Below, piece by piece: positions 13,710 to 32,624 of a stretch of 64,000 bases of DNA. The stretch covers positions 83,126 through 147,125 of the forward strand of contig CAYZWI010000003.1 of the NCBI GenBank assembly GCA_964482205.1, written 5' to 3'. Source of the stretch: an uncultured bacterium (lineage in GTDB: Bacteria > Eisenbacteria > RBG-16-71-46 > CAIMUX01 > WJJG01). Position numbers and translations under genes: made by a program. Every line of letters starts with the position of its first letter. Within the stretch, counting starts at the first letter, position 1. A model generated the notes under the pieces. That model did not search any database. It was not told where the DNA came from and saw only the letters and a program-made list of their open reading frames with translations.

Positions 13710-14299
13710 GCCCGCTCACCTCCTTTCATCCCCTTTCGACGATCCGAAGGGGCATTCTGTTCAGCGAGCATCTGATGAATGGCGCGCAGGCCGTAAAAAA
13801 TCCGGGTGCGGACGGTCGCGGCCGGCACGCCGGTGATTTCGGCGATCTCGTCGGATGTGAAGCCCTGGTACTCGCGCAGCAAGATCGCGGTGCGTTGCTC
13901 GAGAGAGAGCCGCTCGAGCAAGGCCTGGGCCGTCTGCCAGCGGATCACTTCTTCCTGCGCGGGAACGAGCGACATCTCCGACAGGCGCGCGCCTTCCGCG
14001 CCCTCTTCAAGATCGAGCGACTGGAAATGAGGACGCGCTTGCGCAGCGCGATGCCAGTCGCGGCAGAGATTGAGCGCGATGTGATGCAGCCAGGCGCGAA
14101 ATTTCTCCGGCTCGCGCAAGCGACGGATGTTCAGATAGGCCTTGAGGAGCGCTTCCTGGCAGACATCCTGCGCGTCCTCGCTGGTTCCCAGCATGCGGCG
14201 CACGAAGGGAAAGAGCCCGGCATGGGCCTTGCCCGCCAGCTCATTGAACGCGCGCAGGTCTCCCTGCTGGGAAAGAACCACGAGCTCGGTATCGGTCAT
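13706..14299 (-). CDS. ECF-type RNA polymerase sigma factor (sigma-70 family)
   Basis: Region 2 (FNELAGKAHAGLFPFVRRMLG...AQDVCQEALLKAYLNIRRL) and a region-4 HTH (FTSDEIAEITGVPAATVRTRIFYGLRAI) are present. The 197-aa length fits an ECF sigma. Confidence 0.85.
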   Translation of the reverse strand: MTDTELVVLSQQGDLRAFNELAGKAHAGLFPFVRRMLGTSEDAQDVCQEALLKAYLNIRRLREPEKFRAWLHHIALNLCRDWHRAAQARPHFQSLDLEEGAEGARLSEMSLVPAQEEVIRWQTAQALLERLSLEQRTAILLREYQGFTSDEIAEITGVPAATVRTRIFYGLRAIHQMLAEQNAPSDRRKGMKGGERA

Positions 14300-14531: not shown

Positions 14532-16745
14532 TTGTCGCGAGTCCAGACTCGTTCGCGCCCCGCCGCAAAGCCGGGGGCCGTTCCCGTTGCCGCGCGTCCG
14601 GCATCGTGGAGCCCTGCCTGGACGATCGCCCTCATCCTCATCGCCCTTGCGACGGCCGCGATCCACTACGCCGAGCCGGTGCGCGACGGCGACCTCTTCT
14701 TCCATCTCGCCTATGGGCGCTACTTCCTCGAGCATCACACGCTGATTCCCGATCACACCGCCTTCAGCTGGTCGCCGACCGACGGCAAGAACATCTACTG
14801 CGCGTGGATTCCCGAGATCTTCTTCTATCTCGCGCACCAGGCGGGCGGCTACGCCCCGCTCTTCGCCTTCACCTACCTCTGCCTGCTCGTCTTCGTCGCC
14901 GCGACGCTTTGGATGGCCCGGAGACTCGGCGTGCTTCGCCATCCGCTGGTCGGCGTGATCCTGCTGCTCGGATTGCTCATGTCCGATAGCGCAGCCTACA
15001 ACAAGCCCGAGATCTTCTCCTATGTCTTCCTGGTCGTCGCCGTGACCTTGTGGGCGCTCGTCAAGACCGCGGGAGAGCGCGCCTGGAAACTCGTCTACGG
15101 CTTCCCCGTCCTGATGCTGCTGTGGGTGAACAGTCACGGCGGATACATCTTCGGCGTCTTGTTCCTGGCGCTCATGTTCGCGGGCGAAACAGTCAATCGC
15201 CGCTTCGCCCCTTCCCAGGCGCTTCCCGCGAGGGTGTGGAAGCATCTCTCGTACGCGATGGCCTTGAGCGCTCTCGCGATCCTCGTCACTCCCTACGGCA
15301 TTCGCTACCCGCTGCACTTGTTGACGGTCTTCTCGAAGGATTCGCCCGAGGACTGGGGGATGGTGCGCGCCTATCTCTCGATCTTCGACTCGCGCGCGCA
15401 GCATCTGTTCTATGTGCCCTACTTCGCGATCGTGATCGGGTTGTTCGCGCTCGCCGCGTGGGGCAAGCCCAATTTGCGGCGCATCGACTGGGCGCTCCTC
15501 CTGCCCAATCTCGGCCTCGCGTTTGTCTACACGCGCTATCTGCGGTCGACCTACTACTGGGCGCCCGTCTTGGCGATCGGCCTGCTGCTCCTCTTGTCGC
15601 GCCGGCGCGGCCCACTCTGGGCGGCCCGCCCGCGCTGGGCGGCCTACGCCATCGGCGCGGTTTTCTTGATCGGCGCTCTCGCACTCTCGACGCGCGCGAC
15701 CTATCAGTCGATCTGCCGCCCGACGGGTACGCGCTGGTGCGGCTTCGGCGTCTCGTACCAGAATCCCGTCGACGAGGCCGAGTTCATTCGCACGCATTTC
15801 GCCGGCCGCCGCCTGGGCAACGATTACGGCGGCGGGGCCTACCTGTTGTGGAAGCTCTATCCAAAAACCAAGGTGATGGTCGATCCGCGCGGCTTCCCGT
15901 ACCGTTCGTGGATCTCGCGCTATCAAGCGCTCGCGGACGCGAAAGACATGCCGGGATTCCTGAAGGACTTTCCGGCCGAGGTCTGGTGCGTGAATCACTC
16001 GTACGAGCGCCTGACTGCCTGGTTCCTGCGTCAGCCCGATTGGAAGCTCGCCTACTATGGGCCGTCCAGCGCGGTCTTCGCCCGCAGCGACATCCCGATC
16101 CCGGAGATGGAGGATCGTTCCGCCGAAAGCATCGCGCGGATTTCGAACGCCAGCCAGGCGCTCTTCGTCTTCCGCTTCGCGATGGCGATCAGCGACTGGG
16201 ACACTTCCTCGCAGATTCTCGCGCGCATGCGCAGTCACTTTCCTTGCTCGCACACGCGCGCAATGACCGAGTCGATGGAGGATCTGTACGCGGGCACCCG
16301 CGCGTACTACGACGAGAACTATCCGGAAGCGATTCGCCGTCTGGAGAAATGCCGCGCGGGCGGCGCGATCTCCGACCCCAATCTCCTCGTGAACGCCTAC
16401 TATCGCGTGATCGCCTCTTCCTGGAGCAAGCACGACGAGCGCGCGGCGTATGCGTCGGCCCAGGCCGCGCTCGCCGTGCGTCCCGATGACCCGATCGCGC
16501 TCTACAACGCGGGGGTGATCGGCTGGTATGTGGAAGCGCAGGCGGGCCCGCAAGGCGGGCGCGCAGCAGGCGCGGACGCGACGGGCTTGTCGCTGGCGCC
16601 GGTCGCGGGCTCGTGGCGCGATCCGCTGCGCCGCTTCCTGAAGGTGACCGAGAACCAGCCGATCAATCCGACGCTCACATCCGTTGCTTCAAAAATGCTC
16701 CAGGGGGAGTATGCTGAAAGGCCAAGTTTGGTGATGCCGAGATAG
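14532..16745 (+). CDS. Large polytopic membrane protein with C-terminal soluble TPR-like region (GT-C-like, family unassigned)
   Basis: 737 aa with at least 10 predicted TM helices and a motif WVNSHGG in a loop. The C-terminal region of about 250 aa is soluble and helical. The only in-frame start is a TTG at 14532. There is no internal Met before the first TM segment. Confidence 0.5.
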   Translation: MSRVQTRSRPAAKPGAVPVAARPASWSPAWTIALILIALATAAIHYAEPVRDGDLFFHLAYGRYFLEHHTLIPDHTAFSWSPTDGKNIYCAWIPEIFFYLAHQAGGYAPLFAFTYLCLLVFVAATLWMARRLGVLRHPLVGVILLLGLLMSDSAAYNKPEIFSYVFLVVAVTLWALVKTAGERAWKLVYGFPVLMLLWVNSHGGYIFGVLFLALMFAGETVNRRFAPSQALPARVWKHLSYAMALSALAILVTPYGIRYPLHLLTVFSKDSPEDWGMVRAYLSIFDSRAQHLFYVPYFAIVIGLFALAAWGKPNLRRIDWALLLPNLGLAFVYTRYLRSTYYWAPVLAIGLLLLLSRRRGPLWAARPRWAAYAIGAVFLIGALALSTRATYQSICRPTGTRWCGFGVSYQNPVDEAEFIRTHFAGRRLGNDYGGGAYLLWKLYPKTKVMVDPRGFPYRSWISRYQALADAKDMPGFLKDFPAEVWCVNHSYERLTAWFLRQPDWKLAYYGPSSAVFARSDIPIPEMEDRSAESIARISNASQALFVFRFAMAISDWDTSSQILARMRSHFPCSHTRAMTESMEDLYAGTRAYYDENYPEAIRRLEKCRAGGAISDPNLLVNAYYRVIASSWSKHDERAAYASAQAALAVRPDDPIALYNAGVIGWYVEAQAGPQGGRAAGADATGLSLAPVAGSWRDPLRRFLKVTENQPINPTLTSVASKMLQGEYAERPSLVMPR

Positions 16746-18663: not shown

Positions 18664-20082
18664 TCACAGCCGTACTCGCCTCACGACGAGACAGTGGACG
18701 AGAGAATCGTGCAGCGCCTGGCCCTTGTCAGTCATCGCCGCCATCAGATACCCGCCCCCTAGAAGAACCAGCGACAGCAGCTTCAGGAGGTTGCGCATGA
18801 AAGCGCGTCGGAAGTCGACACGTCTGCCAAGTTCGTCTGTAACATGGATATTCATGATGCGCTTGCCGGGTGTGCCCTGCCATGTGGAAATCTCAAAGAG
18901 CGCGTAGTACATCGTCAATGCCAGATACGAGCCAAGTCCAATAAGAACCAATGGTGGGACTCTTAGTCGCCAGAAAAGCAGCGCAGCCAGGAAGAAGACC
19001 GGCACAAGGATCACGCCGTCCAACAAGAGCGCGGAGCCTCTCAGCCAGAACCCGGCATGGGAGAGGGGCAACTCCCCCGGGACCGCGTTCGCCCCAAGGT
19101 CTCCGACAACCTGGGATCCGCGGAGAGCCGGAGGGTTGCCTTGCCCTTCCGGGCAGGGAAGCGGGAACAAGTTGCCGCGGTGCCTGTCTTTGTCCTCCTG
19201 CCAGGCCGCGATGGGAGGTGGCGGAGCTGCCGTGTGCCAACTCGTGGCGCGTTCCAGCGCATGCCGGAAAGCCCGGATCGAAGGGAAGCGATGCTCCGGC
19301 CGTTTGGCCATGGCCTTCCACACAAGAGACTCCAATCCGGGATCGATGTTCGAAAGCAGACCCGACAGTCGCGGAGGTGCTTCCTCCATGATCTTGCGCA
19401 TGAGCAGATCATCTGTATCCGCTTCGAAAGGTCTTACCCCCGTGATCATCTCGTACATCATCACTCCAAGTGCATAGATGTCCGAGCGAGCGTCGACTTC
19501 CCGGGGATTTTGAAGTTGCTCGGGCGACATGTACGCCAAGGTACCAGGTTTCATCGCCGTCGCCGCCTTCAGCTCCTCGGAGCCAAGGACCCTTGCGACT
19601 GCAAAGTCGGTCACCTTGGCCACTAGACCGGCATCCGATCTGGTGACGAGGATATTGCTGGGTTTCAGATCCCGGTGGACGAGCTCCAATCCGTGGGCCT
19701 TTTCGAGCGCGGAGAGCACCTGGAAGGTGATGGCCATGACCTGACCAAGGGGCAGGCCGCCTCCCTGGCGGACGATCAGCTGATCCACCGGCAGGCCGTC
19801 CACATATTCCATGACGATGCCTATCGCCTGCTCATCTTCGACGAAATCGAGGACCTTCACGACATGCGGATGGACCAATTGCGCTTGAATGCGGGCCTCG
19901 GCCCGAAAGCGATCAAGCACCGCGGCGTCCTGACGGAAATGGGAATGCAGACACTTGATGGCCACCATCCTGCCGCCGTCGGGGTCCTGAGCACGGTACA
20001 CAGTGCCCATCCCGCCCTTTCCCAGAACGCCGAGGACTTGGTAGCGCCCAATTCGATCCGGGTCTGTATGCATTCCGCTCAT
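18664..20082 (-). CDS. Ser/Thr protein kinase with C-terminal RDD-family membrane domain
   Basis: Hanks kinase motifs are present (GKGGMGTVY, VAIK, HRDLKPSNIL, DFAVA, MSPEQ). The C-terminal 150 aa form an RDD-like polytopic membrane domain. The start MSGMHTDPDRIGRYQV overlaps the upstream kinase stop as TGATG. Confidence 0.8.
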   Translation of the reverse strand: MSGMHTDPDRIGRYQVLGVLGKGGMGTVYRAQDPDGGRMVAIKCLHSHFRQDAAVLDRFRAEARIQAQLVHPHVVKVLDFVEDEQAIGIVMEYVDGLPVDQLIVRQGGGLPLGQVMAITFQVLSALEKAHGLELVHRDLKPSNILVTRSDAGLVAKVTDFAVARVLGSEELKAATAMKPGTLAYMSPEQLQNPREVDARSDIYALGVMMYEMITGVRPFEADTDDLLMRKIMEEAPPRLSGLLSNIDPGLESLVWKAMAKRPEHRFPSIRAFRHALERATSWHTAAPPPPIAAWQEDKDRHRGNLFPLPCPEGQGNPPALRGSQVVGDLGANAVPGELPLSHAGFWLRGSALLLDGVILVPVFFLAALLFWRLRVPPLVLIGLGSYLALTMYYALFEISTWQGTPGKRIMNIHVTDELGRRVDFRRAFMRNLLKLLSLVLLGGGYLMAAMTDKGQALHDSLVHCLVVRRVRL

Positions 20083-21761
20083 CAGGGGTCCCTGACCACA
20101 TCGCTTTCGGTTTCGGAAACGATTTTCCATCCCGCCGAAAACCGGCGGAACCAAAGCTGTTGTTTTTCGCTCGCACGGTATCGCTTGCCGTTTGCCTGCA
20201 AGATGTCCCAGGATTTGGCGAAGGTGACGAGGGCATGGTCCGCCCCCAGAAAGTCGATGGAGACCTCGCGCACATCGTACCGAAGAACCTCTTCGAAGCG
20301 CGCAAGGGCTTTCCGCTTGTCGTCGCGGATACGGGCATTGGAGGCGTTCGTCCACCCGAAGTACCGTTCCACCTGGTCCGCATAGCACCCCATATGGGTC
20401 TCGAGGTCCCGGTTCACGAGGGAGCGCCGCCAAGTTTCGACCACTCCCAGAATCGCCTGACGGTCCTGCTCATGGGACGACGAAACAGGGTTCTCGGTCG
20501 CCACCTGCCGGACCGGCGTAGAGGAGGCGGATTGCGTGCTAGCCCGTGGAACATCCTGGATGATTGCACGTTGGCTGGCCCCTCCGTCGGAGCCTCGGAT
20601 GACAAGCACAACCATGATGACAACGATGAGTAGACCCAGGCCCAGGAGCCACACGGGAAACGGCCGGGAAGCGGAGGGACGGGAACTCCCCTCCAAAGTG
20701 GAATGATTCGTCCAGCGCTGGAGCCTCCCCTCGACGGCAGGTGCTTCGGCATCGATCGCCGCTGACCGTGACCGGCTCTCAAGCGGGAATCCGGTCCCTT
20801 CTCTCGCCCCAGCGCTCGACCGGCTGGACTGAGCCAGACCGGGAGGAGGCTGCGTCCCCGCACTCACGGAGCGCACACCCCTCGGCTCCACTTTTCCTTC
20901 GGGCGCAGCGCGATCCGTGCCTACGACCGCACCCACCGCAAGCGCCTTCAGGGCCTGCAAAAACTCCTCCGCGCTCTGGAAACGCGCGTCCGGGTTCTTC
21001 GCCATCGCCTTCAGAATGACCGCCTCAAAACCCGGGAAGATTCCCCGATAGAATCTGCTGGGCGCAGGCGCTTCCTCCGAGATGATCGCTTGCATGATTG
21101 AGAAATCCGTATCCGCATCGAAGGGAACTCTGCCCGTGGCCATCTGATAGAGAGTGACTCCCAACGAATAGATGTCGGACCTGCGGTCCACGTCTCGAGC
21201 TGCGCGAATCTGTTCGGGAGGCATGTACCAGAGCGTTCCCATCTTGGCTCCTGTCGCCGTTCGCCCCTTGCCTCCTTCCAGGATCTTGGCCACTCCGAAG
21301 TCCATTACTCGAGCCAGCGTTTCTCCCTTTACCACACTCAGCATGATGTTCGACGGCTTCAGGTCCCGATGGACCACCCCCTGGTCGTGGGCGTATCCCA
21401 CGGCCCGGAGAACCTGATCCATGATTGCCATACACCGCTCGAAGGGAATCGGGCCCGTTTCCTCGGCGATCACCTTGTCCAACGGTCGACCGTCGACATA
21501 TTCCAGCATCAAGCAGAGGAGTTCCCCCTCCTCGATGAAGTCATAGACATGGACGATGTTGGGATGGCTCAGTCGCGCCTGGATCTGCGCTTCCGCACGA
21601 AACCGTTCCCGCACCTGACAATCCCGGGCGAAGAAGGAATGGAGGACTTTCACAGCAACCGGCCGATCGAAACGCAAATCGGTCCCCCGGAAAACGGTCC
21701 CCATGCCGCCGTCGCCAAGGAACGCATCGATCCGATACGGCCCGATCTGCTCTCCGATCAT
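20082..21761 (-). CDS. Receptor-type Ser/Thr protein kinase with extracytoplasmic NTF2/SnoaL-like domain
   Basis: The N-terminal kinase domain has GDGGMGTVF, VAVK, HRDLKPSNIM, DFGVA. A single TM helix (WLLGLGLLIVVIMVVLVI) follows. The C-terminal domain (ILGVVETWRRSLVNRDLETHMGCYADQ...WFRRFSAGWKIVSE) is NTF2-like. Confidence 0.8.
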   Translation of the reverse strand: MIGEQIGPYRIDAFLGDGGMGTVFRGTDLRFDRPVAVKVLHSFFARDCQVRERFRAEAQIQARLSHPNIVHVYDFIEEGELLCLMLEYVDGRPLDKVIAEETGPIPFERCMAIMDQVLRAVGYAHDQGVVHRDLKPSNIMLSVVKGETLARVMDFGVAKILEGGKGRTATGAKMGTLWYMPPEQIRAARDVDRRSDIYSLGVTLYQMATGRVPFDADTDFSIMQAIISEEAPAPSRFYRGIFPGFEAVILKAMAKNPDARFQSAEEFLQALKALAVGAVVGTDRAAPEGKVEPRGVRSVSAGTQPPPGLAQSSRSSAGAREGTGFPLESRSRSAAIDAEAPAVEGRLQRWTNHSTLEGSSRPSASRPFPVWLLGLGLLIVVIMVVLVIRGSDGGASQRAIIQDVPRASTQSASSTPVRQVATENPVSSSHEQDRQAILGVVETWRRSLVNRDLETHMGCYADQVERYFGWTNASNARIRDDKRKALARFEEVLRYDVREVSIDFLGADHALVTFAKSWDILQANGKRYRASEKQQLWFRRFSAGWKIVSETESDVVRDP

Positions 21762-21800
21762 CTGCTGGCTCTCTCCATCTCCCGGGTCACTCGTGGATCC

Positions 21801-22898
21801 CTATCTGTAGCGGCGCACTTCGAGAATTCTGCGATTGCCGATCAAGCTGGTGCTCCCCACGCCCACGCCCTCTTCCGGCGATGCGCGGAGAAAGGTCGTG
21901 CCACCGTCCAAGAGAATGACCGGCTGGGATCGCCCGGGATCGAGAGTCGAAAGAAAGGCGATATCTCCTACCTTCGCGGAATCGACTGACACGACATTGC
22001 CCCAATCGGCTAGCGCTTCGAGCGTCCGCGGCGCCCTGATTCCCGCCAGGCGAAAGAAAAGATGAACCAGCCCTTCGGCATCCATCGCCGCCATGCTGTT
22101 CGCCCCGGTCTGGTACCGCGTCCTACGGAACTTGCGAACCGCTTCGATGGCGTCAGGTATGGGCAATGGTTCTGATAGCGGCGCCACGTTCGCTCGATCG
22201 ACGCGCACACTTGGACCGCCCGGAACCGCCAACGTCACCGAGGAATCCGCGGCACTCTGCCCCCGAGGCCGGCCTACCCCGGTCGCCCGCAGGCGGGCCC
22301 CGCACGGCAGAAAGATCCCTTGATCGCACGGCACGCCGGGAGCGGCGACGACGGTGAACGAATCCCCGGAATCCTCCATCCCATGATCGCTCTGCTCCGG
22401 CGCCAGTGCGGTGACCGGCACCCAACCCGTCGGGTCACCTCGTTCCCCAAAGCGCACTTCCCTCCAGGCCCCTTGGCTGGCAAGCACCTCCACCCGGTCC
22501 CCGACCAAGAGCTGGGCCAGACGTGAGGAGGACTCCGACGGGCTCTCGAACACGTCACTCCAGGGTCGCTGCCTGTCCTGCAACCGCAGCACGGCCTTTC
22601 CCCGCCAGGGCGCGTCCGTCGCACGTTGGGCCGCGTCAGCGGATTGTGCCGGCCCGGTTCCGCCCGTATGCCCGGAGGAGTCGCCCGCCGATCGAGGCGG
22701 GGCACCTGTCGCGCGGCTTGCGTTGGAATCGAGACCGAGCGATTCGAGGCCCGGCCCCACAAGAAACCGCCCGATCCCCGTGCCGACCGCGAAGACCAGA
22801 ACCAGGGAGACGAAGGCTCCCAAGGCCGGGCGCCGCCCCCGGGTCTTCCCGAGACGTCTGTTGCGCTGCCCATGCCGCTTCATTGGGAGTAGATCCAC
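21801..22898 (-). CDS. NlpC/P60-like pseudo-peptidase with SH3b-like domain (catalytic Cys and His replaced)
   Basis: N-terminal TM/signal anchor. An SH3b-like segment (GDRVEVLASQGAWREVRFGERGDPTGWVP) precedes a C-terminal NlpC/P60 fold. In place of the FDCSGLV catalytic motif it reads MDAEGLV. In place of the His motif it reads SQPVILLDGG. Confidence 0.6.
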   Translation of the reverse strand: MDLLPMKRHGQRNRRLGKTRGRRPALGAFVSLVLVFAVGTGIGRFLVGPGLESLGLDSNASRATGAPPRSAGDSSGHTGGTGPAQSADAAQRATDAPWRGKAVLRLQDRQRPWSDVFESPSESSSRLAQLLVGDRVEVLASQGAWREVRFGERGDPTGWVPVTALAPEQSDHGMEDSGDSFTVVAAPGVPCDQGIFLPCGARLRATGVGRPRGQSAADSSVTLAVPGGPSVRVDRANVAPLSEPLPIPDAIEAVRKFRRTRYQTGANSMAAMDAEGLVHLFFRLAGIRAPRTLEALADWGNVVSVDSAKVGDIAFLSTLDPGRSQPVILLDGGTTFLRASPEEGVGVGSTSLIGNRRILEVRRYR

Positions 22899-25129
22899 TG
22901 GTAGTTCTTATAGTCTCCGAGCACTCGCTTGATGTAGTTCCTGGTCGCCTGAAATGGGATGTTCTCGATGAATTCGTCCACAGGCTGATCGGCCGGCTTG
23001 GCGTTCCACCACTTTTCAACCTGCTCGGGTCCGGCGTTGTAACTGCAGATAGCGGGGAACCAGTCGCCTCCAAACCGCTGGACCATCTTGGCCAGATAGT
23101 ACGTTCCGTACCGAATGTTCGTCTGGGGATTGACCAGGTCGGCTTTCCCCGGCACCGGAAGGCCCCTTTCCTTCGCAATCTGCTCGGCCGTTCCGGGCAT
23201 GAGCTGCATCAGGCCAATCGCACCCACACCGGACGTGACCACAGGGGAAAACTTGCTCTCGTTGCGAATCAACGCCGCCGTCAGGTGAGCGTCGATTCCG
23301 TTCTTGAGAATGCCCGTTTCCTCGATGGCTTGCCTGATCTCCTCCTTGTAGTTGTACGGATAGAGGATTTGCCAGAACTCGATAGGAACCAAGTCGCCGT
23401 TCCTGGATCCGGACAGCACGAAGTCCCGATAGCTGTCGACCAGCATGTCGATCGCTTCCCAACTCTGACCTGCTCGACTGTATAAGTAGGCCAAGGAGAG
23501 CCTCAGCTTCGGATCGGTCGCCGCGGAAGGAACGGAGGCCAGTTCCGCCGCGGCGAATTCGTACAGTCCGATCGCGCGCAGATTGACCGCCCGGGCATAC
23601 CCTCCCTCTCCAGGGGGGCCGGCCGCGGCATCCGTGAGCTTGTCGAAGGCGGGAAAGGGCTTGAGGTTTCCGAACTGTCTCGGTTGTTGGCCCAGAGCCA
23701 GCAGGTTCTCGACGGCCCGATGTCCGTAGTAGTCCTGGGGGTACTCGCGGACGAGCTGCTGGTACAGCTCGATCGCCCCCGCCCGATCGGAATCCGCGGT
23801 GAAGCGAGCAATCCAGTAGAGAGCCGCTTTCTTATAGCCGGTGTCTGAATGTTCAGCCAACAAGCGGCGCATGGTGGCCACCGCCGCTGCCGTGTTGCCT
23901 TGATTCCTCTGGAACCAGGCCAGCTTCCAGAGCGCGTCATGGGCCACGTCGCTCTCTCCCGCCATTCCGACCACCTGCTCGAGCACCGGCAGCGCCTGTT
24001 CGATGCTCACGTCGTTTCCCAGATGCACGCCGTAGGCGTACATCGCATCCGCGGCGCTGGAACTTCCCGGATATTGCCCCTTCAGGAATTCCGCCCATTG
24101 GCGGATGGCATCGGTGTTGCCCGAGGTCCGGCGGAGCGCCGCGATAGCCGAGAGCACGGCCGATGGAACGCAATTCGACGAGGGATACCGCGATCGCAAG
24201 TCCCGGACGGTCTGCACGCAAGCATCGTTTTCTCGAAGATCGTAGAGGCACTGCGCGCGCGTCAGAAGAACTTCGTCGGTTCGCGGGTCGCCCGGATGGG
24301 AGCCCAGGAAGGTCTCGATCTCTTGCTTCATGGCGCTCTTCAGACCTGCGGCCCCCAGGCTTGATATGAACTCAAACCGCCGCGCGGAAGACATTGTGCG
24401 AGGCGCGAGCCCCGCCGAGCGTTCGAGGTCGCGGGCGCGATCTCTGGCCTGCACGGCCCAGGGGCTGCGCGGAGTGTCGAACCATGTCGTTTCGTAAAGG
24501 CGGTGGGCTTCAGCCGCGTTCCCCGCCTGGCGCTCCGCCTCGGCGGTCAGCCAACGAGCCTCGTGGATTTCCCGGGCCTTCGGCCAGCGAGTGAGAAAGG
24601 TCAACCCGGCGGACGCCGCCTGGGGCCATCGCTGTTGGGCGCTTGCCAACTTGAGAAGCAGGAATTGCGCTTCCCTCTCCAGGACCGGGCTTCCGCCCGG
24701 TCCCGTTGCGCTCAAGATCTCCTGCAGGCGATCGAAGGCCAGGGTGTACTGGTCCTGCAGCCCACCTTCGATCACTGCGCGGGCGACGAGCACTTTTCCG
24801 TACTCGGGCCCCACCGTGCCCGCTGAAGCGCGCTCCAGATAAGGGAGAGCTTCCGAATAGCGGCGCATGCCGATCAACATGTTGCCCAGCACGAGAGCCG
24901 CACGGTCACCGACCGCGTCCTTTTCGTACGTCTCCACGACCCCCTGCAGCAGGTCGACGGCCTGAGATGTCTCCCCTCGGCTGAAGACATCCAAGGCCGT
25001 GTCGATGTCGGTTGGGCTGGACTTGCCCCTCGAGGCTTTCTCCTCCTCTTGGCAGGATGTCCCGGCAAGGATCAAGCAGACGGACAGGAAGATCAGCGTA
25101 GGCAGCGAACGCACGCCACGAGCGGACAT
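22880..25129 (-). CDS. Soluble lytic murein transglycosylase (Slt70-like)
   Basis: Signal peptide MSARGVRSLPTLIFLSVCLILAGTSC. A long alpha-superhelical N-terminal region precedes a C-terminal SLT domain (IRNESKFSPVVTSGVGAIGLMQLMPGTA, SYNAGP). The listed ORF is extended to 25195. I start the gene at the Met of MSARG. Confidence 0.8.
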   Translation of the reverse strand: MSARGVRSLPTLIFLSVCLILAGTSCQEEEKASRGKSSPTDIDTALDVFSRGETSQAVDLLQGVVETYEKDAVGDRAALVLGNMLIGMRRYSEALPYLERASAGTVGPEYGKVLVARAVIEGGLQDQYTLAFDRLQEILSATGPGGSPVLEREAQFLLLKLASAQQRWPQAASAGLTFLTRWPKAREIHEARWLTAEAERQAGNAAEAHRLYETTWFDTPRSPWAVQARDRARDLERSAGLAPRTMSSARRFEFISSLGAAGLKSAMKQEIETFLGSHPGDPRTDEVLLTRAQCLYDLRENDACVQTVRDLRSRYPSSNCVPSAVLSAIAALRRTSGNTDAIRQWAEFLKGQYPGSSSAADAMYAYGVHLGNDVSIEQALPVLEQVVGMAGESDVAHDALWKLAWFQRNQGNTAAAVATMRRLLAEHSDTGYKKAALYWIARFTADSDRAGAIELYQQLVREYPQDYYGHRAVENLLALGQQPRQFGNLKPFPAFDKLTDAAAGPPGEGGYARAVNLRAIGLYEFAAAELASVPSAATDPKLRLSLAYLYSRAGQSWEAIDMLVDSYRDFVLSGSRNGDLVPIEFWQILYPYNYKEEIRQAIEETGILKNGIDAHLTAALIRNESKFSPVVTSGVGAIGLMQLMPGTAEQIAKERGLPVPGKADLVNPQTNIRYGTYYLAKMVQRFGGDWFPAICSYNAGPEQVEKWWNAKPADQPVDEFIENIPFQATRNYIKRVLGDYKNYQWIYSQ

Positions 25130-25157
25130 AGCTCTTTCCTCCTTGCTTGCAGGACTG

Positions 25158-26561
25158 TCAGGGAAAGGAGACGGAGATCGTCTTCCCGGGTTCAATGCTC
25201 ACTTTCTTCTCTTGCTGGTGATGGCCCCACCAAACCTTGACCGTGTGTCCCGTGGCCGACAAGTTGAGAAATTCATGTTTCGTGGAGTTCTTCCCGCTGG
25301 AATAGAAATCGTCCACATAGGCACGACCGGCCGGTTGCATGTTCACAATCAGGGTTCCGGTGGTCGGCACCTGGCCTCCGCCTGTGTCTTCGATCGGGTC
25401 AGGGTCGTGTCCATTCGGGATCACCAAAATCGCCACGACTGCCGCCGCGATCAAGAGCACGATCGGAACCAGGTAGCGAAGTGGCGATTGGCCCTTTCTC
25501 GGCGCGAGGCCCTGCACCTTCTGCGCTGGTGCGTCTGGTGGCCTTGGCCGGAGGTCGTTTCCCGCTCCCTCGCCCGGCGCTCCCCGCCCACCTTCCGGAG
25601 TCGGGGCCGCCACCTGCCCGGTGGCAACCGAAACGCCTGGTGGGACCGCCATGCCTGGACCCGCCTGTTCCTTTGAAGCCGCGGCGGCGCTCCCCGGCGT
25701 CTCGGCCGGCGCCTCGGGCACCAGTGGCGGAAGTGTCCCCGCGTCCAGAAGCGCCTCGAGAAACTCCTCGCAGTTTGAAAAACGCTTGTCGGGGTCCTTG
25801 GCCATGGCGCGCAGAATCACCTGCTCGAACTTCTTGGAGATATGGGGATATCGCTCACTGGGCAACGGCGGATCCTGCGTAATGACCTTGGTCATCACCT
25901 CGTATTCGCTGTCGCCCTGGAATGGCAGGACGCCCGTCGCCATTTCATAGAGCGTGCAACCGAGCGAGTAGATGTCGGACCGCGCATCGACATCCTTCGG
26001 CGAGCGGATCTGCTCCGGGGAGCTGTAGAAGAAGGTCCCCAGCTTCGCGTCCGGATTCGTTCGCCTCTTTTCATCGCCGAGGATCTTTGCGATCCCGAAG
26101 TCCATGATCTTCGCATGCACGCGCTTGCCGAACCATTGAATCATGATGTTGGAGGGTTTGATGTCCCGGTGGATCAATCCCTTGGCGTGGGCGAAGCCGA
26201 GTGCGTTCAGGACCTGGGACATGATCTCGCAGCACATCGGGTAGGGCATCGGGCCGGTCACTTCGGCCAGAACCTCCGTCAGGCTCTTGCCGTCGACGTA
26301 CTCCATGACAATGGCGGCCACGTGCTCGTCAAGAAGGAAGTCGTGAACGGTGACGATGTTGGGATGCTGCAGGCGAGCCTGGATGACCGCCTCGCTCTTG
26401 AACCGCTCCAAGGTCGCCGGATCGCGCGCGAGGTGCTCATGAATGACTTTGATCGCGACCGGAGAGTCGAAGCGCGGGTCCCGTCCCTTGTAGACGGTTC
26501 CCATGCCTCCGTCACCGATCACGCCGGTAATCTCGTAGCGCCCGATCGACTCCATCTCCAC
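25158..26561 (-). CDS. Receptor-type Ser/Thr protein kinase with extracytoplasmic PEGA domain
   Basis: Kinase motifs GDGGMGTVYKG, VAIK, HRDIKPSNIM, DFGIA. A Pro-rich linker and a TM helix (YLVPIVLLIAAAVVAILVI) follow. The C-terminal PEGA-like beta domain is GTLIVNMQPAGRAYVDDFYSSG...HTVKV. Confidence 0.8.
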   Translation of the reverse strand: MEMESIGRYEITGVIGDGGMGTVYKGRDPRFDSPVAIKVIHEHLARDPATLERFKSEAVIQARLQHPNIVTVHDFLLDEHVAAIVMEYVDGKSLTEVLAEVTGPMPYPMCCEIMSQVLNALGFAHAKGLIHRDIKPSNIMIQWFGKRVHAKIMDFGIAKILGDEKRRTNPDAKLGTFFYSSPEQIRSPKDVDARSDIYSLGCTLYEMATGVLPFQGDSEYEVMTKVITQDPPLPSERYPHISKKFEQVILRAMAKDPDKRFSNCEEFLEALLDAGTLPPLVPEAPAETPGSAAAASKEQAGPGMAVPPGVSVATGQVAAPTPEGGRGAPGEGAGNDLRPRPPDAPAQKVQGLAPRKGQSPLRYLVPIVLLIAAAVVAILVIPNGHDPDPIEDTGGGQVPTTGTLIVNMQPAGRAYVDDFYSSGKNSTKHEFLNLSATGHTVKVWWGHHQQEKKVSIEPGKTISVSFP

Positions 26562-26591
26562 TCCGCAATTGACGTCCGCCTCGCCAGCCCT

Positions 26592-28427
26592 CTACTTGCC
26601 GCGCCTCGTCCGCGGGGCCGGCTTGGTCTGCCCGGTCGGCCGGGTCTGCCCAGCCGACCCGGTCTTCCTGATGTCCGCGGTGGCTGGTTTGCCCGCATCC
26701 GTTCTCTGGCCCGCTCGCAAGGCGGCGGGCTGCGCCTGAGCAGCCGCCGTCGGCTGAGCCGCCGGCTCTACCGCGCCTTGCTGCTGAACACGATCCGCTG
26801 GAGCCGATCGCGCACGAGGAGTGTTCGCGTCAACATCCGAATCGTCCGAGGCTCTCCGTGACAACCCTTGGATATCGTCAGGCAGGTGCTGCCGGAGCGT
26901 GTCGCTCTTTGCCCGTGCGATCCACTCGACTGGCTCGAGTCTCATCGAAGAGGCCACGGTCCGCGCCCAGACTCCGAACACCACCAAGCCGGTGCCGCTG
27001 GAGGCAATGGCTGCAATCCTCCCGTCCGGCAAGAGATCGACATGCACCGAGGCGCCCGTCGTCGGGAGAACATTCCCATCAAGACGAAGGGGCTCGGGCG
27101 CCTGGTCCATTGTGAGCTCGGATCCTAAAGACCGGACTCGGAGCAGAAGGTAGTGCGTTCCCGGTCCGAGAGCGCCTTGCGGCAAACCCGATGCCGACGA
27201 GGATGGATCGACATGCAATTGGCCGCACTGAGAAAGAAGACTGATCAGGTCCCCCTTCTCTTCTCCGACGTACCGGCGCATACGCAGAAGACACGCGCTG
27301 GCGGTGTCGGACGGATCGGGCAGGTAGAAACCACAGAGCGCCACCAGATCGGTTTGGGGAGAAGCCGGAGCGAACCGAATGCTCATGTACGGAGCTCCCG
27401 CCGCCTGGTCCTGCAGAATCAGCCGGAGCTCGCCGCCGAAGTCATCTCCCGTGTCGGCCGGCCCTCGAATCACGTCATTCAGCGTCTGGAATGCGCCAGT
27501 CGACCAGGCCGCTGAGGGAGGCCTGTGGGCCGAATACAGGTAGTACGCCGAGCCCACGATGATACCCAGCAAGAGAGCCGCCGCAGCGGGAATCCAGTGC
27601 CACGTGAGTTTCCGGCGCCCGGCGGGTCCGAAATCCGGAACCGGCGCTTGGCTGCGCATGCGCGACCACGTGCCTCGCGGTCGTCCGCGATGGATTATCT
27701 GCACGGTGGCGTTGTCGTGACCACCGCGCTGATTCGCCAAGTCAACGAGGCGCTTGCATGCTCTCTGGGGTCCGTATTGCCGGCTCATCCAGGCCATTTC
27801 CTTGGGTGAGACGGCGTCATACAGCCCGTCCGTGCACATGATGAGGCTGTCGCCTTCCTCCAATCGGATTGGCATCGTGCAGATGTCTGGATCGATGTCG
27901 GAGGCCGGTCCGATCACGCGCTCGAGGACGTGTCGCTTGGGATGCTCACGCGCCTGTTCCACCGTGATCAGGCCGTCGTCGATCATTCTTTGCACGAGGG
28001 TATGATCCCGGGTGACTTGGGTGGCTTCGTCTTCGTGCAAATGGTAGATGCGGCCGTCTCCGATGTGACCCCACCAGGCACGATTCTCCTCCACCACGAC
28101 CACATCGAGGGTGGCGCCCATGTTGGCGAGCTCCGGCCTTTCTTCCTTGACGCTCTGGCAGGCAAAATTCGCTTCCCGCATGGCCCGGGCAATCAGCCTG
28201 CGGGGAGTCTGCCCCAAGCCTTTCTGGAACACCGCGTGCACCGCCTGCACGACAGTGCGGCTCGCTTCTCGCCCGCCCGACGCCCCACCCATTCCATCGG
28301 CGACCACGAACAGTCGCTGGGAGCCGATTTGGCAATAGAGATGGTAGTCCTCATTCGTCTCTCGAACTCTGCCGACATCACTGTGGTTGCTGACAAGCAG
28401 CGGGATCTGGCGCCGGAACAGGCTCAT
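26592..28427 (-). CDS. PP2C-family Ser/Thr protein phosphatase, membrane-anchored with extracytoplasmic C-terminal domain
   Basis: PP2C motifs are present (SDVGRVRETNEDY, FVVADGMGG, MCTDGL, GGHDNATV). A TM helix (WIPAAAALLLGIIVGSAYYLY) is followed by a periplasmic region of about 300 aa. Confidence 0.85.
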   Translation of the reverse strand: MSLFRRQIPLLVSNHSDVGRVRETNEDYHLYCQIGSQRLFVVADGMGGASGGREASRTVVQAVHAVFQKGLGQTPRRLIARAMREANFACQSVKEERPELANMGATLDVVVVEENRAWWGHIGDGRIYHLHEDEATQVTRDHTLVQRMIDDGLITVEQAREHPKRHVLERVIGPASDIDPDICTMPIRLEEGDSLIMCTDGLYDAVSPKEMAWMSRQYGPQRACKRLVDLANQRGGHDNATVQIIHRGRPRGTWSRMRSQAPVPDFGPAGRRKLTWHWIPAAAALLLGIIVGSAYYLYSAHRPPSAAWSTGAFQTLNDVIRGPADTGDDFGGELRLILQDQAAGAPYMSIRFAPASPQTDLVALCGFYLPDPSDTASACLLRMRRYVGEEKGDLISLLSQCGQLHVDPSSSASGLPQGALGPGTHYLLLRVRSLGSELTMDQAPEPLRLDGNVLPTTGASVHVDLLPDGRIAAIASSGTGLVVFGVWARTVASSMRLEPVEWIARAKSDTLRQHLPDDIQGLSRRASDDSDVDANTPRARSAPADRVQQQGAVEPAAQPTAAAQAQPAALRAGQRTDAGKPATADIRKTGSAGQTRPTGQTKPAPRTRRGK

Positions 28428-29959
28428 CAGACCTCCCCACGGAACTGAAGCACGACGCCGCCAATACGAAACCGCTGCCCGGACGTCAAGAGCGTGGGTT
28501 GATCGATCCGCTCGCCCCCGGCGAGGTACGTGCCATTCGTGCTTTGCAGGTCCTCCAGCCAGAACTGATGGTCGCGGAATTCGATGACCGCGTGGTGGGA
28601 GGAAACGCGCTCTTCATCCAAGACGATGTTGTTGTCCAGGGCCCGGCCCAACGACGTGCGCGCCGGCAGCAAGGGCAGATTCGATCCGGCCAGCGGGCCG
28701 CTTTCCACGTGCAGCGAGCCGGCGCGATAGGCCTGCAGGACCGATGTCCCGGGATCGTACATGGTCCGTTGCTTGGGCCGCGCAGCCGGCGGGGCGGCGG
28801 GGCGAGCATCCGAGCCGGACTGGACGACTCGCTGTTCCATCTCCTTGATGCTGGCCGTCGCCTGCGCAAGCTGGCCTTCCAGCTTCTGAAACGCGTCGGC
28901 CTGCTGCCTCTTTTCCTCTTCCACGCGATGCATCTCGCCCTGATACGCGAGGTGACGGGCGCGCGATCTGAACCAGAGCAACGCCGAGCACGCCGCAACG
29001 CCCACGAGGGCGATTCCGACGTAGAGCAGCCAAGGCGTCTTTTGGGGAGGGATCGCATGAAGGGGCACGCGGAAGGAGAAACTCCGCCGGACCTGGGTGG
29101 TCGGCATCTTCACCTCGAGCACGGCCGCATGTTCGGAACCGTCCGCCGGCAAGCTCGAAGTCCAGACGAACTCCCAGCGCGATTCCAGGTTGGTCCGCAT
29201 GGCCGCAAGCTTGTCCTTCCACCGCTGCCCGCTCTCGAAAGGCAGGAAGACTCCTCCCGTTTCGGTGGACAGCCGCTGAACGTTGCGCCAGTCCGTCTGG
29301 CTGCCGGACTTGATGCCGATCCCCATGATGCTGGCCCCCACCTTGGCGGCCATTTCCCGGCAGGATTCCAGGGTGTAGGCCCCCCCCTCGTTCTTCCCGT
29401 CCGAGATCAGCACGAGCACCTTGCGTTCGGGCAACCCTTCCTGCTGGAGCAACTCGAGCCCGCGCACGACGCCGTAGAACAGCTCCGTGCGCTTTCCGGG
29501 CGTCTCCATTTCACGCATCGCGGCAACCAAGGCCGAGCGGTCAACCGCGAAATCGATGAGTTGCTGCTGATCATCGTGAAAGGCCACGAGGGCACAGCGG
29601 TCGCCGTCCTCCAACCGCCCCACGAAATCGACCAAGGCAGTTCTCACCTCCGGCATCACTTCCTTCATCGAACCGGAGACGTCGACTGCAAACACGAACC
29701 CAATGCCGTTGACCAGACCGATCTTGCGCAATTCGCCCTTCACCGGCTGGTCCTTCTCCAGCACCGTCACATCCTCGACGTTCAGGCTGCTGACCAGCTC
29801 GCTGTGCTCGGACATGACTTCGAACCGAATGGCCATGCGGGGATATCCGGTCGTGTCGATGCCGGCATTCTGCAGCTCGCACACTGCGGCGTGGACGCCC
29901 GGCACAACAGAGAGCGCTACGCAGGCGGCAATCGACAGGCGGAGACAAGGCATCATCAC
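28427..29959 (-). CDS. vWA-domain / FHA-domain transmembrane protein
   Basis: Signal peptide MMMPCLRLSIAACVALSVVPGVHA. The vWA MIDAS motif is FVFAVDVSGSMKE...LISDG. A TM helix (WLLYVGIALVGVAACSALLWF) and a coiled coil follow. The C-terminal FHA domain is VSSHHAVIEF...STNGTYL. The stop overlaps the PP2C start. Confidence 0.8.
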   Translation of the reverse strand: MMMPCLRLSIAACVALSVVPGVHAAVCELQNAGIDTTGYPRMAIRFEVMSEHSELVSSLNVEDVTVLEKDQPVKGELRKIGLVNGIGFVFAVDVSGSMKEVMPEVRTALVDFVGRLEDGDRCALVAFHDDQQQLIDFAVDRSALVAAMREMETPGKRTELFYGVVRGLELLQQEGLPERKVLVLISDGKNEGGAYTLESCREMAAKVGASIMGIGIKSGSQTDWRNVQRLSTETGGVFLPFESGQRWKDKLAAMRTNLESRWEFVWTSSLPADGSEHAAVLEVKMPTTQVRRSFSFRVPLHAIPPQKTPWLLYVGIALVGVAACSALLWFRSRARHLAYQGEMHRVEEEKRQQADAFQKLEGQLAQATASIKEMEQRVVQSGSDARPAAPPAARPKQRTMYDPGTSVLQAYRAGSLHVESGPLAGSNLPLLPARTSLGRALDNNIVLDEERVSSHHAVIEFRDHQFWLEDLQSTNGTYLAGGERIDQPTLLTSGQRFRIGGVVLQFRGEV

Positions 29960-30175
29960 TTCTGCCCTCCCTGGTCAAGGACCCGAACAGTGCCTCGGGC
30001 GTGAGCAATCGGTCCCTGGGATGCGCGACGGCCACCCGACTGGCCAGGAAACAGGCCATGCCGGATCTCGACGAGGACGTTCTGGCTCGTGGGTCGACGG
30101 GAGGATTCCGGGCATGTCGCAGGCGCGAAACGGATCCTCCCGACCTGGCAGACGCGCATCTGTCAACCGCCCCGG

Positions 30176-30925
30176 TTAGATCATGTAGATCGTGAAGACC
30201 GAGCGCTTCCCGAGTTCGATCGAATCCCGGTTCTGCAAGAGAACGGCCCCCTCCGCAAACAGATCCTGCTGATTGACCTTGGTGCCGTTCATGGAATCAC
30301 AGTCCTTGATGTAGAACTGACCGTCCTGAAACCGAATGACCGCATGCCGTCCCGAAATCGTGGGATCCCAGTCGACGCAGATCTCACACTCTCTTTCGGA
30401 TCCGATGAGATTCCGGCCCTCCCGCAGTCGAAAATCTCGACCCGTCGGCCCTTGGGAGAAAGTCACCAACCAACCCACCAGCTTGCGCTCGGAAGAAGAA
30501 GCCCGGCCTGCCGGGAGACCCGGTTGCTCCGGTGCCGCCTGGACTCCCGGATCGTAGACCGTCTTCCCCTTGTCGCTCCGACCTCCGCCACCCCCTTCCA
30601 TGACCGTGCGAGGCTTCGGAGAGGATCCTCGGGCCTGGTCGCCGCGATCTCCGGTCGACGGCTGCTCCAGGATCGTGGCCCCTTTGGTGAACGCCCCTGG
30701 AGGCCCAACGGGAGGATTGGCGGAAGTGCCCGGGCTTTGGTTTCGATGGCGCGCGGTTGGCGGACAGTATTGGCACTCCGTCCAGGTCGGGTCCATGATA
30801 TGCCCGTTTGGGCAGAGCCTGGCATTCAGCTGGATTCCGCACCGTTCGCAGTAGCCATTGATTGGTTTCACTTCTGCCCGGCAGTTGGCACAGTACATGG
30901 TGCCCCTCCATTTCACTTGCCTCAC
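30176..30925 (-). CDS. FHA-domain protein with N-terminal zinc-ribbon
   Basis: Cys4-type zinc ribbons are present (CANCRAEV...CERCG and CPNGH...CQYC). A Pro/Gly-rich linker leads to a C-terminal FHA domain (GRHAVIRFQDGQFYIKDCDSMNGTKVN). This is the first gene of the minus-strand operon. The true start may be MYCANC at 30898. Confidence 0.7.
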   Translation of the reverse strand: MRQVKWRGTMYCANCRAEVKPINGYCERCGIQLNARLCPNGHIMDPTWTECQYCPPTARHRNQSPGTSANPPVGPPGAFTKGATILEQPSTGDRGDQARGSSPKPRTVMEGGGGGRSDKGKTVYDPGVQAAPEQPGLPAGRASSSERKLVGWLVTFSQGPTGRDFRLREGRNLIGSERECEICVDWDPTISGRHAVIRFQDGQFYIKDCDSMNGTKVNQQDLFAEGAVLLQNRDSIELGKRSVFTIYMI

Positions 30926-31376: not shown

Positions 31377-32624
31377 ATGGAAGGCGGCAGCATCAATCCG
31401 GCCTTGATTGCGCTCTTGGTCTTTGTGATCGCCCTCGTCATCTACCTCATCGCCGGCTTTCGCAGGATTCCACTGGGTGCTGTGGGACTCGTCGTCACGA
31501 TGGGGAGGCGGACGGGCGATGTGCGCTCGGAGGGAAACACCTGGCTAGCTCGTTTCTTCCAGAGCGTCGTTGTCCTCTTCATTCGTGAACGCCAAGTCGA
31601 CATTCCCACGGCGCAGTACTACACATCCGACCGCGTTCGAATCGCTTTCAAGACTACGATCCGGGTTTCCGTCGCCGATGCAGCCGCATTGTTCAGCCAG
31701 GGACCTGGCACCTACGGTCCGTTTACCAGAGAAGGCTATGGAAACACCGAAAGTGGCTCGGAAGAGGCGAACATCGCTTTACGGAATTTGGTCCAAAACT
31801 CGATTCGCGAGACAATCCAGGCGATGCGCATCGATGAAGTGATGTTTGGGGGATCGTCTCAAAACTCCGTGCGGGAACTAATCCGCCAGGCACTCGCCCG
31901 AACGGCCAAGCGATGGGGCCTGGAAGTGCTCGAGGTTTGGCTGACGGATGTAGATGCGGATAATGCCGAGGTGAAAAAGGCCGTTCAGGCAGAAGTCCAA
32001 GCCACCATGGAGGGGCGCGGGCAACTGGCCAAATTCGAAGTGAAGGTTGCCCAGGGAGGGCTCTTCCAGAAGGTGGCCATGGATGTGGCCAATCTCATCT
32101 ACGACCGGACGGGAAACCGGGTGAGCCCCGACCAAGTGATGAATTTCCTGATTGGCTTCTATCGGAACGAACGCGCGCTAGATGTCGCCATGGCCGCGAG
32201 CAAGGGGACCAATGATATTCTGCAGGCGTTCTACATGCATCATGTGGGCATGCCTCTTCCCGATGCCCCGCCAGTCTTGCCGGGTTTGCAGAACGCTCCT
32301 GGAGCGGGTTTGTTTCTTGGCGGTAGTCCCGGCATCCCCTTCCTGCAAGGCTCCTGGATCATTGGCCGTGAAGGCACGATTGAAATTGACAGCCCAGGTG
32401 TGTCTCGAAGGCATGCGCGTTTGGACGGAAACGGTAGTCAGTACACGCTCACCGACCTCGGATCTTCGAATGGGACTTTTGTCAACAACGCCATGCTGAC
32501 GCCCAACTCCCCGATCCTGGTGCAACCAAGTGATTCGGTCCGGTTCGGACAGCGAGTATCGACGACAGTCGCCAGTCTCGTCCAGGCGGTCGGACGAGGA
32601 CGCTTGGATGTCCAGCCAGGATAG
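31377..32624 (+). CDS. SPFH (band-7/stomatin-like) domain protein fused to a C-terminal FHA domain
   Basis: An N-terminal TM helix (ALIALLVFVIALVIYLIAGF) is followed by an SPFH core (IPLGAVGLVVTMGRR...YYTSDRVRIAFKTTIRVSV) and a coiled coil. The C-terminal FHA domain is GSWIIGREGTIEIDSPGVSRRHARLD...LTDLGSSNGTFVNN. The ATG at 31377 lies in frame within the listed ORF. The gene is divergent from the kinase operon. Confidence 0.7.
   Translation: MEGGSINPALIALLVFVIALVIYLIAGFRRIPLGAVGLVVTMGRRTGDVRSEGNTWLARFFQSVVVLFIRERQVDIPTAQYYTSDRVRIAFKTTIRVSVADAAALFSQGPGTYGPFTREGYGNTESGSEEANIALRNLVQNSIRETIQAMRIDEVMFGGSSQNSVRELIRQALARTAKRWGLEVLEVWLTDVDADNAEVKKAVQAEVQATMEGRGQLAKFEVKVAQGGLFQKVAMDVANLIYDRTGNRVSPDQVMNFLIGFYRNERALDVAMAASKGTNDILQAFYMHHVGMPLPDAPPVLPGLQNAPGAGLFLGGSPGIPFLQGSWIIGREGTIEIDSPGVSRRHARLDGNGSQYTLTDLGSSNGTFVNNAMLTPNSPILVQPSDSVRFGQRVSTTVASLVQAVGRGRLDVQPG

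Follow-up and report, generated by a model that had tools for sequence, protein, structure and literature searches.

An NlpC/P60 homologue without a catalytic triad as a putative partner of an Slt70-type lytic transglycosylase

Degenerate homologues of peptidoglycan hydrolases can act as regulators, as the LytM factors EnvC, NlpD and DipM do, and here we describe a candidate regulator with a different fold. It is an apparently dead NlpC/P60 protein (hereafter the dead P60 protein), and its gene directly follows that of an Slt70-type lytic transglycosylase (Slt) in a 64,000-nucleotide stretch of DNA from an uncultured Eisenbacteria bacterium (contig CAYZWI010000003.1; the whole stretch is referred to as the window). 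Several described systems come close to this pair. The dead LytM factor DipM of Caulobacter interacts with several autolysins, and its degenerate groove docks and stimulates the SLT SdpA (PMC10336132). RipA, an active NlpC/P60 protein, acts synergistically with the glycosidase RpfB, and its P60 domain has been reported to bind the RpfB catalytic domain (PMC12067865). RipD (Rv1566c) of Mycobacterium tuberculosis possesses a non-catalytic P60 domain with an Ala-Ser-Glu ‘triad’, which binds peptidoglycan without cutting it; RipD carries C-terminal pentapeptide repeats and lacks a conserved hydrolase partner gene, and a role in recruiting further hydrolases has been proposed for it (PMC12067865). 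Finally, YkfC binds free stem peptides. According to its structure paper, the triad is Cys238-His291-His303, Asp237 and Arg255 form the hydrogen-bond core of the groove, and Tyr118 (from the SH3b1 domain) and Asp256 recognize the free N-terminal L-Ala amine of the substrate (PMC2954226).

The dead P60 protein resembles each of these systems in part. Its triad is replaced in a similar way to that of RipD (Ala-Ser/Gln-Arg in the window protein and Ala/Gly-x-Glu as the family consensus, compared with Ala-Ser-Glu). However, the two proteins belong to different families: on the NCBIfam model NF033743 (NlpC_inact_RipD), for which the cut-off is 215 bits, the window protein reaches 20.5 bits, the crystallized chain of RipD (4jxb, 134 residues) consists of one NlpC/P60 domain, and RipD is actinobacterial. 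As in RipA-RpfB, an NlpC/P60 protein is partnered with a glycan-cleaving enzyme, but RipA is active, the two genes are not an overlapping pair, and Rpf is not of the Slt70 type. The LytM factors have the M23/LytM metallopeptidase fold in contrast to the papain-like fold of NlpC/P60, and the resemblance to them is functional only. DipM has several autolysin partners, whereas a single coupled Slt gene, known from gene linkage, is found here; by analogy, DipM-SdpA is the closest likely working model. The literature on NlpC/P60 inactivity, lytic transglycosylases, pseudoenzymes and FHA/PP2C operons contains no description of a dead-P60/Slt pair that we could find. A preliminary description of the window had called the pairing undescribed, which holds for the pair itself, but the concept is less unprecedented in view of RipD, RipA-RpfB and DipM-SdpA: precedents exist for a dead P60 domain, for a complex of P60 with a glycosidase and for dead hydrolases that regulate SLTs, and what appears to be new is the dead-P60/Slt pair. 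We favor, with a probability of about 60%, the reading that the dead P60 protein is a direct, non-catalytic partner or regulator of Slt, which is suggested by gene linkage and by analogy to these systems.

The dead P60 protein and its family

From the N-terminus on, the dead P60 protein consists of a membrane helix, a linker, a pair of SH3b domains and the NlpC/P60 domain (Table 1). It matches Pfam NLPC_P60 (PF00877) with an E-value of 8e-8 (32.7 bits; cut-off 23), and SH3_3 and SH3_16 are also matched. The AlphaFold model, which was built from the family alignment, has a mean predicted local distance difference test (pLDDT) score of 83, and the score exceeds 90 over residues ~95–360. In a Foldseek comparison with the PDB, the top matches are the three-domain DPP VI/YkfC structures 3npf, 4r0k, 3pvq and 3h41, with template modelling (TM) scores of 0.66–0.68 over ~297 columns. 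Single-domain P60 enzymes come next, with TM scores of 0.7–0.84 for the P60 domain against MepS, LytE, SagA and others, and the non-catalytic RipD (4jxb) is also matched lower down, at rank 50. The modelling, which the preliminary description had proposed, gives an NlpC/P60 fold in a YkfC-like three-domain layout. No M23/LytM domain is matched in the protein by Pfam or Foldseek, and the domain is NlpC/P60. Neither Pfam nor NCBIfam has a dedicated model for the family, and the best NCBIfam scores are far below the cut-offs.

In a HMMER alignment to E. coli MepS/Spr, Ala269 (AMDAEGLV) faces the nucleophile Cys (GIDCSGFV), Ser316 (GRSQPV) faces the catalytic His (GRHVGI), and Arg333 (FLRAS) faces the third His (FVHAS). 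MAFFT places Gln317 instead of Ser316 at the catalytic His column, and no His is present there by either alignment. The same triad assignment as in the MepS alignment is obtained when the family profile is aligned to YkfC (3h41). The loss of the triad, which had been read from the motifs in the preliminary description, is thus borne out at all three positions (Cys to Ala269, His to Ser316/Gln317 and His to Arg333), and the alignments contain no relocated Cys/His pair that would restore it. The two Cys residues that the window protein does contain (VPCDQGIFLPCG) lie in its second SH3b-like domain, and the homologues do not conserve them. As judged from these alignments, the window protein is an NlpC/P60 homologue without the catalytic triad.

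The nearest kin of the clade, according to profile and model comparisons, is YkfC/dipeptidyl-peptidase VI (DPP VI). Searched against PDB sequences, the family profile matches 3h41 with an E-value of 8e-23 and 3npf with 1e-20, the alignment running from SH3b1 into the P60 domain, and the E-values for YkfC/DPP VI proteins range from 8e-23 to 1e-19. The SH3b1-SH3b2-NlpC/P60 architecture is shared, the top profile and fold matches are to these proteins, and Tyr226, Asp237 and Arg255 of YkfC have equivalents in the window protein (Tyr257, Asp268 and Arg286). In contrast, Trp228, Cys238, Ser239, Asp256, Ser257, His291, His303 and Tyr118 of YkfC are lost or variable in the family; Tyr118 and Asp256, for example, correspond to Pro151 and Thr287 in the window protein, and both columns are variable. 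The comparison suggests that the scaffold and the groove core persist in the dead P60 protein while the substrate-specificity residues of YkfC are gone. The two groups also differ in setting: YkfC is a recycling enzyme without an obligatory Slt neighbor, whereas the members of the family have a membrane anchor and always follow an Slt gene.

Searched exhaustively with HMMER, 1.84 billion cluster representatives yielded 724 matches, 21 of them at E < 1e-30, and word-indexed protein searches returned only 2–3 matches for the dead P60 protein, with a single relative in one of them, and 7 for Slt. The P60 domains of 143 of the 724 matches were aligned together with MepS, and the top ~37 representatives were taken as the family, which comprises at least 37 sequence clusters with 27–43% identity to the window protein. 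Every one of these members was found in a metagenome or in a metagenome-assembled genome. At the Cys column, the 37 members contain Ala (15), Gly (15), Ser (4) or Asp (3), and none contains Cys. The catalytic His is kept in eight, and the third position is Glu in 22. The other 106 aligned matches contain Cys in 90, His in 93 and the second His in 77. The loss of the triad therefore extends beyond the window gene, with the nucleophile Cys present in 0/37 members, and appears from this pattern to be under selection.

The members are built to one plan: after a hydrophobic N-terminus come a variable linker of low complexity, one SH3b domain, another β domain and finally a degenerate P60 domain, the signature of which is Y-Q-x-G-G-N-T-x-x-A-M-D-[AG]-x-G-L-[VI] ... 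P-R ... G-D-V-x-F ... P-x-P-V-x-L-L-D ... F-L-E-A-S-P ... V-R-R-Y, in which Asp268 and Arg286 are among the invariant residues. Nearly all the N-termini are hydrophobic, some contain lipoboxes (LIAC, SAGC, LLGC), and the cytoplasmic tail of most members is just a few residues long. Individual members depart from this plan. An extra C-terminal hydrophobic helix follows the P60 domain in P0028, P0030, P0031 and the genes at L023:2252–3394 and L024:960–2081, and these members may be anchored at both ends. P0024 reads MDACGLV, with a Cys one position past the nucleophile column, and its other two triad positions still hold His and Glu; judged by its sequence, it may be a rare case of a family protein that is active or has regained activity.

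It is extremely improbable that the protein is still an enzyme, cleaving peptidoglycan or some different substrate with a non-canonical nucleophile, or else a decaying pseudogene. The Ser residues at the Cys column of four members and the shifted Cys of P0024, with its His and Glu, would fit a residual enzyme, but Ala or Gly occupies the nucleophile position in 30/37 members, the His is absent in 29/37, and the invariant residues include no alternative conserved nucleophile. A mis-framed open reading frame or a decaying pseudogene is ruled out because the reading frames are intact, identical copies occur in independent assemblies and the family is conserved. The window gene itself has an intact frame and identical copies in independent assemblies; the frame error that the preliminary description had considered was not found, and the reading as a dead P60 protein stands.

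The Slt gene and conservation of the pair

Slt matches Pfam SLT (PF01464; E-value 3e-29, 101 bits) behind a long run of TPR-type repeats. In the PDB, it is most closely related to P. aeruginosa Slt and E. coli Slt70, to which it is aligned via E624-S625, GLMQLMP and YNAGP. Glu624 and Ser625 are invariant in nine Slt orthologues, and the window Slt looks active with its catalytic Glu-Ser motif intact. The probable lipoprotein signal (Table 1) also fits the N-termini of the Slt orthologues of L018 and L021. Slt is below the equivalog cut-off for E. coli Slt (NF008631; 107.5 bits vs 536) and below that for the flagellar transglycosylase BB0259 (NF047373; 195.6 vs 234 bits), and its neighbors include no flagellar genes. 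About 12 kb from the pair, at 7592–9388 (minus strand), the window encodes another, unrelated lytic transglycosylase (SLT_2/MltB-like, PF13406, E-value 4e-37).

Both genes lie where the preliminary description had located them (21801–22898/22883 and 22880–25129, minus strand). The open reading frames of the window extend over 22880–25195 for Slt and 21801–22898 for the P60-like gene, and the DNA at their junction reads TACTCCCAATGAAGCGG. The ATG at 22883 is the start called for the identical 360-residue protein on 11 public contigs, and the same gene calls start Slt at the ATG at 25129, which yields a 749-residue product. The GTG at 22898, which would give the 19-nucleotide overlap stated in the preliminary description, is the first in-frame GTG and probably represents an extension of the open reading frame. 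The ATG at 22883 is preferred because of the ATGA junction, the public gene calls and the same junction in orthologous loci; it is most likely the true start, and the overlap with the Slt stop is then four nucleotides instead of 19. A four-nucleotide stop/start overlap (ATGA, GTGA or TTGA) is found in the window, L001, L010, L012, L017, L018, L022, L023 and L024, where L001 is counted after correction of its mis-called start. At L001 (9743–10780), the public call for P0002 (259 residues, GTG start) is probably truncated, and an in-frame ATG overlapping the Slt stop (ATGA) adds 86 residues that include a canonical lipoprotein signal (…LALIAC). The ATGA overlap has the form of a signature of translational coupling between the Slt and dead-P60 genes.

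A TPR-SLT gene is located immediately upstream of the dead-P60 gene in all 14 family loci that have upstream DNA. These are the window (the same DNA as L002; family member P0001), L001 (P0002), the contig carrying P0004, L010 (P0029), L012 (P0003), L013 (P0030), L014 (P0016), L017 (P0032), L018 (P0020), L020 (P0008), L021 (P0041), and L022, L023 and L024, which were found by scanning metagenomes with an Slt alignment. The upstream Slt shares 32–67% identity with the window Slt in 13 of the loci (tblastn); for the P0004 contig, the evidence is a called 749-residue TPR-SLT gene instead. None of 62 Slt relatives of <38% identity, each with at least 1 kb of downstream DNA, has a P60 gene in its flanks. 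Active relatives served as controls: P0039 sits after a response-regulator gene without an Slt neighbor, and the active YkfC-like gene of Plantactinospora (GIDCSG), the only return of a genome scan with a two-sequence family alignment, has no Slt within 10 kb. The 14/14 pairing together with the translational coupling indicates that the linkage is not a coincidence of the window genome, and the association noted in the preliminary description is that of a conserved, translationally coupled pair. An apparent Slt-P60 fusion in L024 is not real, as the open frame is out of register with Slt. At L012 (673–2610), the dead SH3b-P60 module is tandemly duplicated within one 645-residue protein (P0003), whose gene still lies directly behind that for Slt and ahead of one for a large kinase/TPR protein.

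We consider it unlikely that the dead P60 protein is a wall binder only, which, like RipD, would mark, protect or anchor the wall without ever touching Slt, the two genes being neighbors since both products act on the wall. RipD demonstrates that an Ala-Ser-Glu P60 domain can bind peptidoglycan non-catalytically (PMC12067865), the model of the window protein matches RipD 4jxb, and SH3b domains are common wall-binding modules. However, 14/14 pairing at 27–43% identity plus a four-nucleotide overlap is tighter than the usual pathway-level linkage, the residues with which YkfC holds the stem peptide are not conserved, and ripD itself is without a conserved hydrolase neighbor (PMC12067865).

Signalling genes around the pair

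The pair is embedded in an operon of eight genes (Table 1), which are separated by gaps of ≤40 nucleotides or overlap, except for ~220 nucleotides after the first gene. A promoter/terminator scan of the operon performed no better than on shuffled sequence. The same gene order is found in L001 and the P0004 contig, with 40–54% protein identity, and kinase or FHA genes flank the pair also in L010, L012, L014 and L018; in about half of the loci, the window included, the pair lies within an FHA/VWA/PP2C/Ser-Thr-kinase operon. Kinases are absent from several loci, so the cluster is not essential: the Slt/dead-P60 pair is the invariant core, and the kinase cluster is frequent but dispensable.

Table 1. 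Coordinates of the gene pair, its domains and the surrounding operon in the window.
Feature	Position (nt)	Strand	Description and basis
Dead P60 gene	21801–22883	−	360-residue SH3b-SH3b-NlpC/P60 protein; stop 21801–21803, ATG start 22881–22883; open reading frame list and gene calls
ATGA junction	22880–22883	−	Slt stop TGA 22880–22882 overlaps dead-P60 ATG 22881–22883
N-terminal hydrophobic helix	22761–22826	−	Residues 20–41, after a short basic tail; AlphaFold helix; membrane anchor or export signal
First SH3b domain	22389–22601	−	Residues ~95–165; Pfam SH3_3/SH3_16, β strands of the model, aligns to SH3b1 of YkfC and DPP VI
Second SH3b-like β domain	22176–22370	−	Residues ~172–236; model strands 175–235; full-length YkfC/DPP VI match
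Degenerate NlpC/P60 domain	21804–22166	−	Residues ~240–360; Ala269 (nt 22077–22079) at nucleophile position; Pfam, alignments
Slt gene	22880–25129	−	749-residue TPR/superhelical Slt70-type lytic transglycosylase; Pfam SLT and TPR families
Probable Slt lipoprotein signal	25052–25129	−	To Cys26 (…LILAGTSC); N-terminal sequence
SLT catalytic domain	22895–23308	−	Residues ~608–745; Glu624-Ser625 at nt 23255–23260
Surrounding operon	18664–30898	−	Eight genes; Pfam and gene calls for the same DNA
FHA + zinc ribbon	30176–30898	−	
VWA-FHA	28427–29956	−	
PP2C phosphatase	26592–28427	−	
Ser/Thr kinase 1	25158–26555	−	Hanks-type; followed by Slt, then dead P60
Ser/Thr kinase 2	20082–21761	−	Hanks-type; NTF2-like C-terminus; after dead P60
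Ser/Thr kinase 3	18664–20082	−	Hanks-type; fused to RDD
SPFH/Band7-FHA gene	31377–32624	+	Divergent, upstream of operon

In Actinobacteria, FHA proteins, a PP2C phosphatase and Hanks-type kinases are encoded together with two periplasmic/extracytoplasmic peptidoglycan enzymes in the fhaA-fhaB-pstP-rodA-pbpA-pknA-pknB cluster. The likeness to the window operon is one of layout only, with kinases, FHA proteins and PP2C around two wall genes. The actinobacterial wall genes encode the synthases RodA and PbpA, whereas a cleaving enzyme and a dead peptidase are encoded here, along with a VWA-FHA protein.

The signalling genes raise the alternative that the dead P60 protein is a muropeptide sensor, in which the degenerate YkfC-type pocket binds fragments released by Slt and the membrane-anchored protein signals to the neighboring transmembrane Ser/Thr kinases or PP2C. 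We regard it as very unlikely. Kinase genes lie on either side of the pair in the window, L001, L010, L018 and the P0004 contig, and the YkfC ancestor binds free stem peptides (PMC2954226), but the kinases are missing from L017, L021 and L022–24, the cytoplasmic tail of most members is very short, and the ancestral ligand contacts are not conserved.

A reading of the operon as a defense system was also rejected. In PADLOC, all three kinases match PD-T4-6 models (E-values 1e-80 to 1e-91) and PP2C weakly matches PDC-M21C (1.5e-12), while nothing is returned for Slt or the dead P60 protein; the PD-T4-6 matches look like generic hits to the Hanks-type kinase domain, not evidence of a defense system. 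The published vWA ‘ternary system’ is built differently, around MoxR or STAND components. A PEGA-like periplasmic domain guessed for kinase 1 is unsupported by Pfam.

Elsewhere in the window, genes for an MttB-family methyltransferase, a B12-binding protein and a homocysteine S-methyltransferase form a cluster at 39223–43141 (minus strand), which looks like a corrinoid-dependent pathway for quaternary-amine or methylamine demethylation. Long open reading frames (319–794 residues) without a Pfam match are located at 9333–11717 (−), 11731–13709 (−), 14532–16745 (+) and 37329–39170 (−), and two of the four are directly downstream of a gene for an extracytoplasmic function (ECF)-type sigma factor at 13706–14299 (−). 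A 1120-residue S8 subtilase with CarboxypepD_reg, MAM-like and C-terminal FlgD_ig domains is encoded at 47016–50378 (−); C-terminal Ig-like tails such as FlgD_ig are common in the Fibrobacteres-Chlorobi-Bacteroidetes (FCB) group and related uncultivated phyla, which hints weakly at the taxon of the source. No rRNA or tRNA genes were found in the window.

A proposed role for the dead P60 protein

In the favored reading, Slt and the dead P60 protein would constitute a two-part periplasmic module for peptidoglycan cleavage. The upstream gene would supply an active Slt70-type lytic transglycosylase with a long TPR/superhelical N-terminus and a probable lipoprotein anchor, and the downstream gene, translated in step with it via the ATGA overlap, a membrane-tethered SH3b-SH3b-NlpC/P60 protein. 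The latter probably descends from γ-D-Glu-diamino-acid endopeptidases of the YkfC/DPP VI type and presumably can no longer cut, because its triad reads Ala-Ser/Gln-Arg. It may instead bind Slt, the wall next to the membrane, or both, as a non-enzymatic subunit, and this binding would position or tune the cleavage of glycan strands, in the way degenerate LytM factors dock and control amidases and SLTs through their dead groove. Such a non-enzymatic role is reasonable because of the precedents DipM-SdpA, RipA-RpfB and RipD. In the loci with a kinase operon, transmembrane Ser/Thr phospho-signalling is probably connected to the module. What we infer from these data is a physical interaction with Slt, which way any regulation goes and a connection to the kinases, and sequence cannot decide between an activator, a tether and an inhibitor.

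An inhibitory variant, in which the dead P60 protein is a stoichiometric safety catch that restrains Slt at the membrane until release, for example by a kinase-dependent signal, is quite unlikely in our estimate. Enzyme-inhibitor pairs typically show translational coupling, which gives matched amounts of the two proteins, unregulated lytic transglycosylases are dangerous, and the pair resides in a signalling operon at many loci. On the other hand, the precedents DipM-SdpA and RipA-RpfB are stimulatory or synergistic, not inhibitory, and no sequence feature separates inhibition from activation.

Three observations weigh against a direct partnership of the dead P60 protein with Slt. Adjacency and coupling would also be expected if the two proteins shared no more than a pathway. 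At L017, L021 and L022–24, the kinase context is missing and thus cannot be essential to the pair. Moreover, the S1/S2 ligand residues of YkfC (Trp228, Ser239, Asp256, Ser257 and Tyr118) are not conserved, which makes stem-peptide binding in the ancestral mode doubtful.

More tentatively, dead YkfC-type ‘P60 factors’ may constitute dedicated lytic-transglycosylase regulators that have so far gone unrecognized, a papain-fold counterpart of the LytM factors that forms an obligate complex with TPR-Slt and serves in many lineages as an output/input device of a transmembrane Hanks-kinase/FHA/PP2C pathway controlling the cleavage of peptidoglycan; we think this broader proposal possible but less probable than its negation. 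If it is true, the P60-factor module would be the hydrolase-side mirror of the actinobacterial PknB-FhaA-PstP-RodA-PbpA system.

The practical value is limited for now by the metagenomic origin of all the members found. For cell-wall biology, the restraint and direction of lytic transglycosylases are far less understood than the control of amidases, and DipM-SdpA is the only case of a dedicated protein activator of an SLT that we found in the literature on the subject. If the dead P60 protein is a regulator, the coupled pair would represent a second, structurally unrelated solution and would extend the idea of a dead hydrolase as a regulator from LytM to NlpC/P60. Its position in the operon provides a concrete place to ask whether eukaryote-like phospho-signalling governs wall cleavage outside Actinobacteria.

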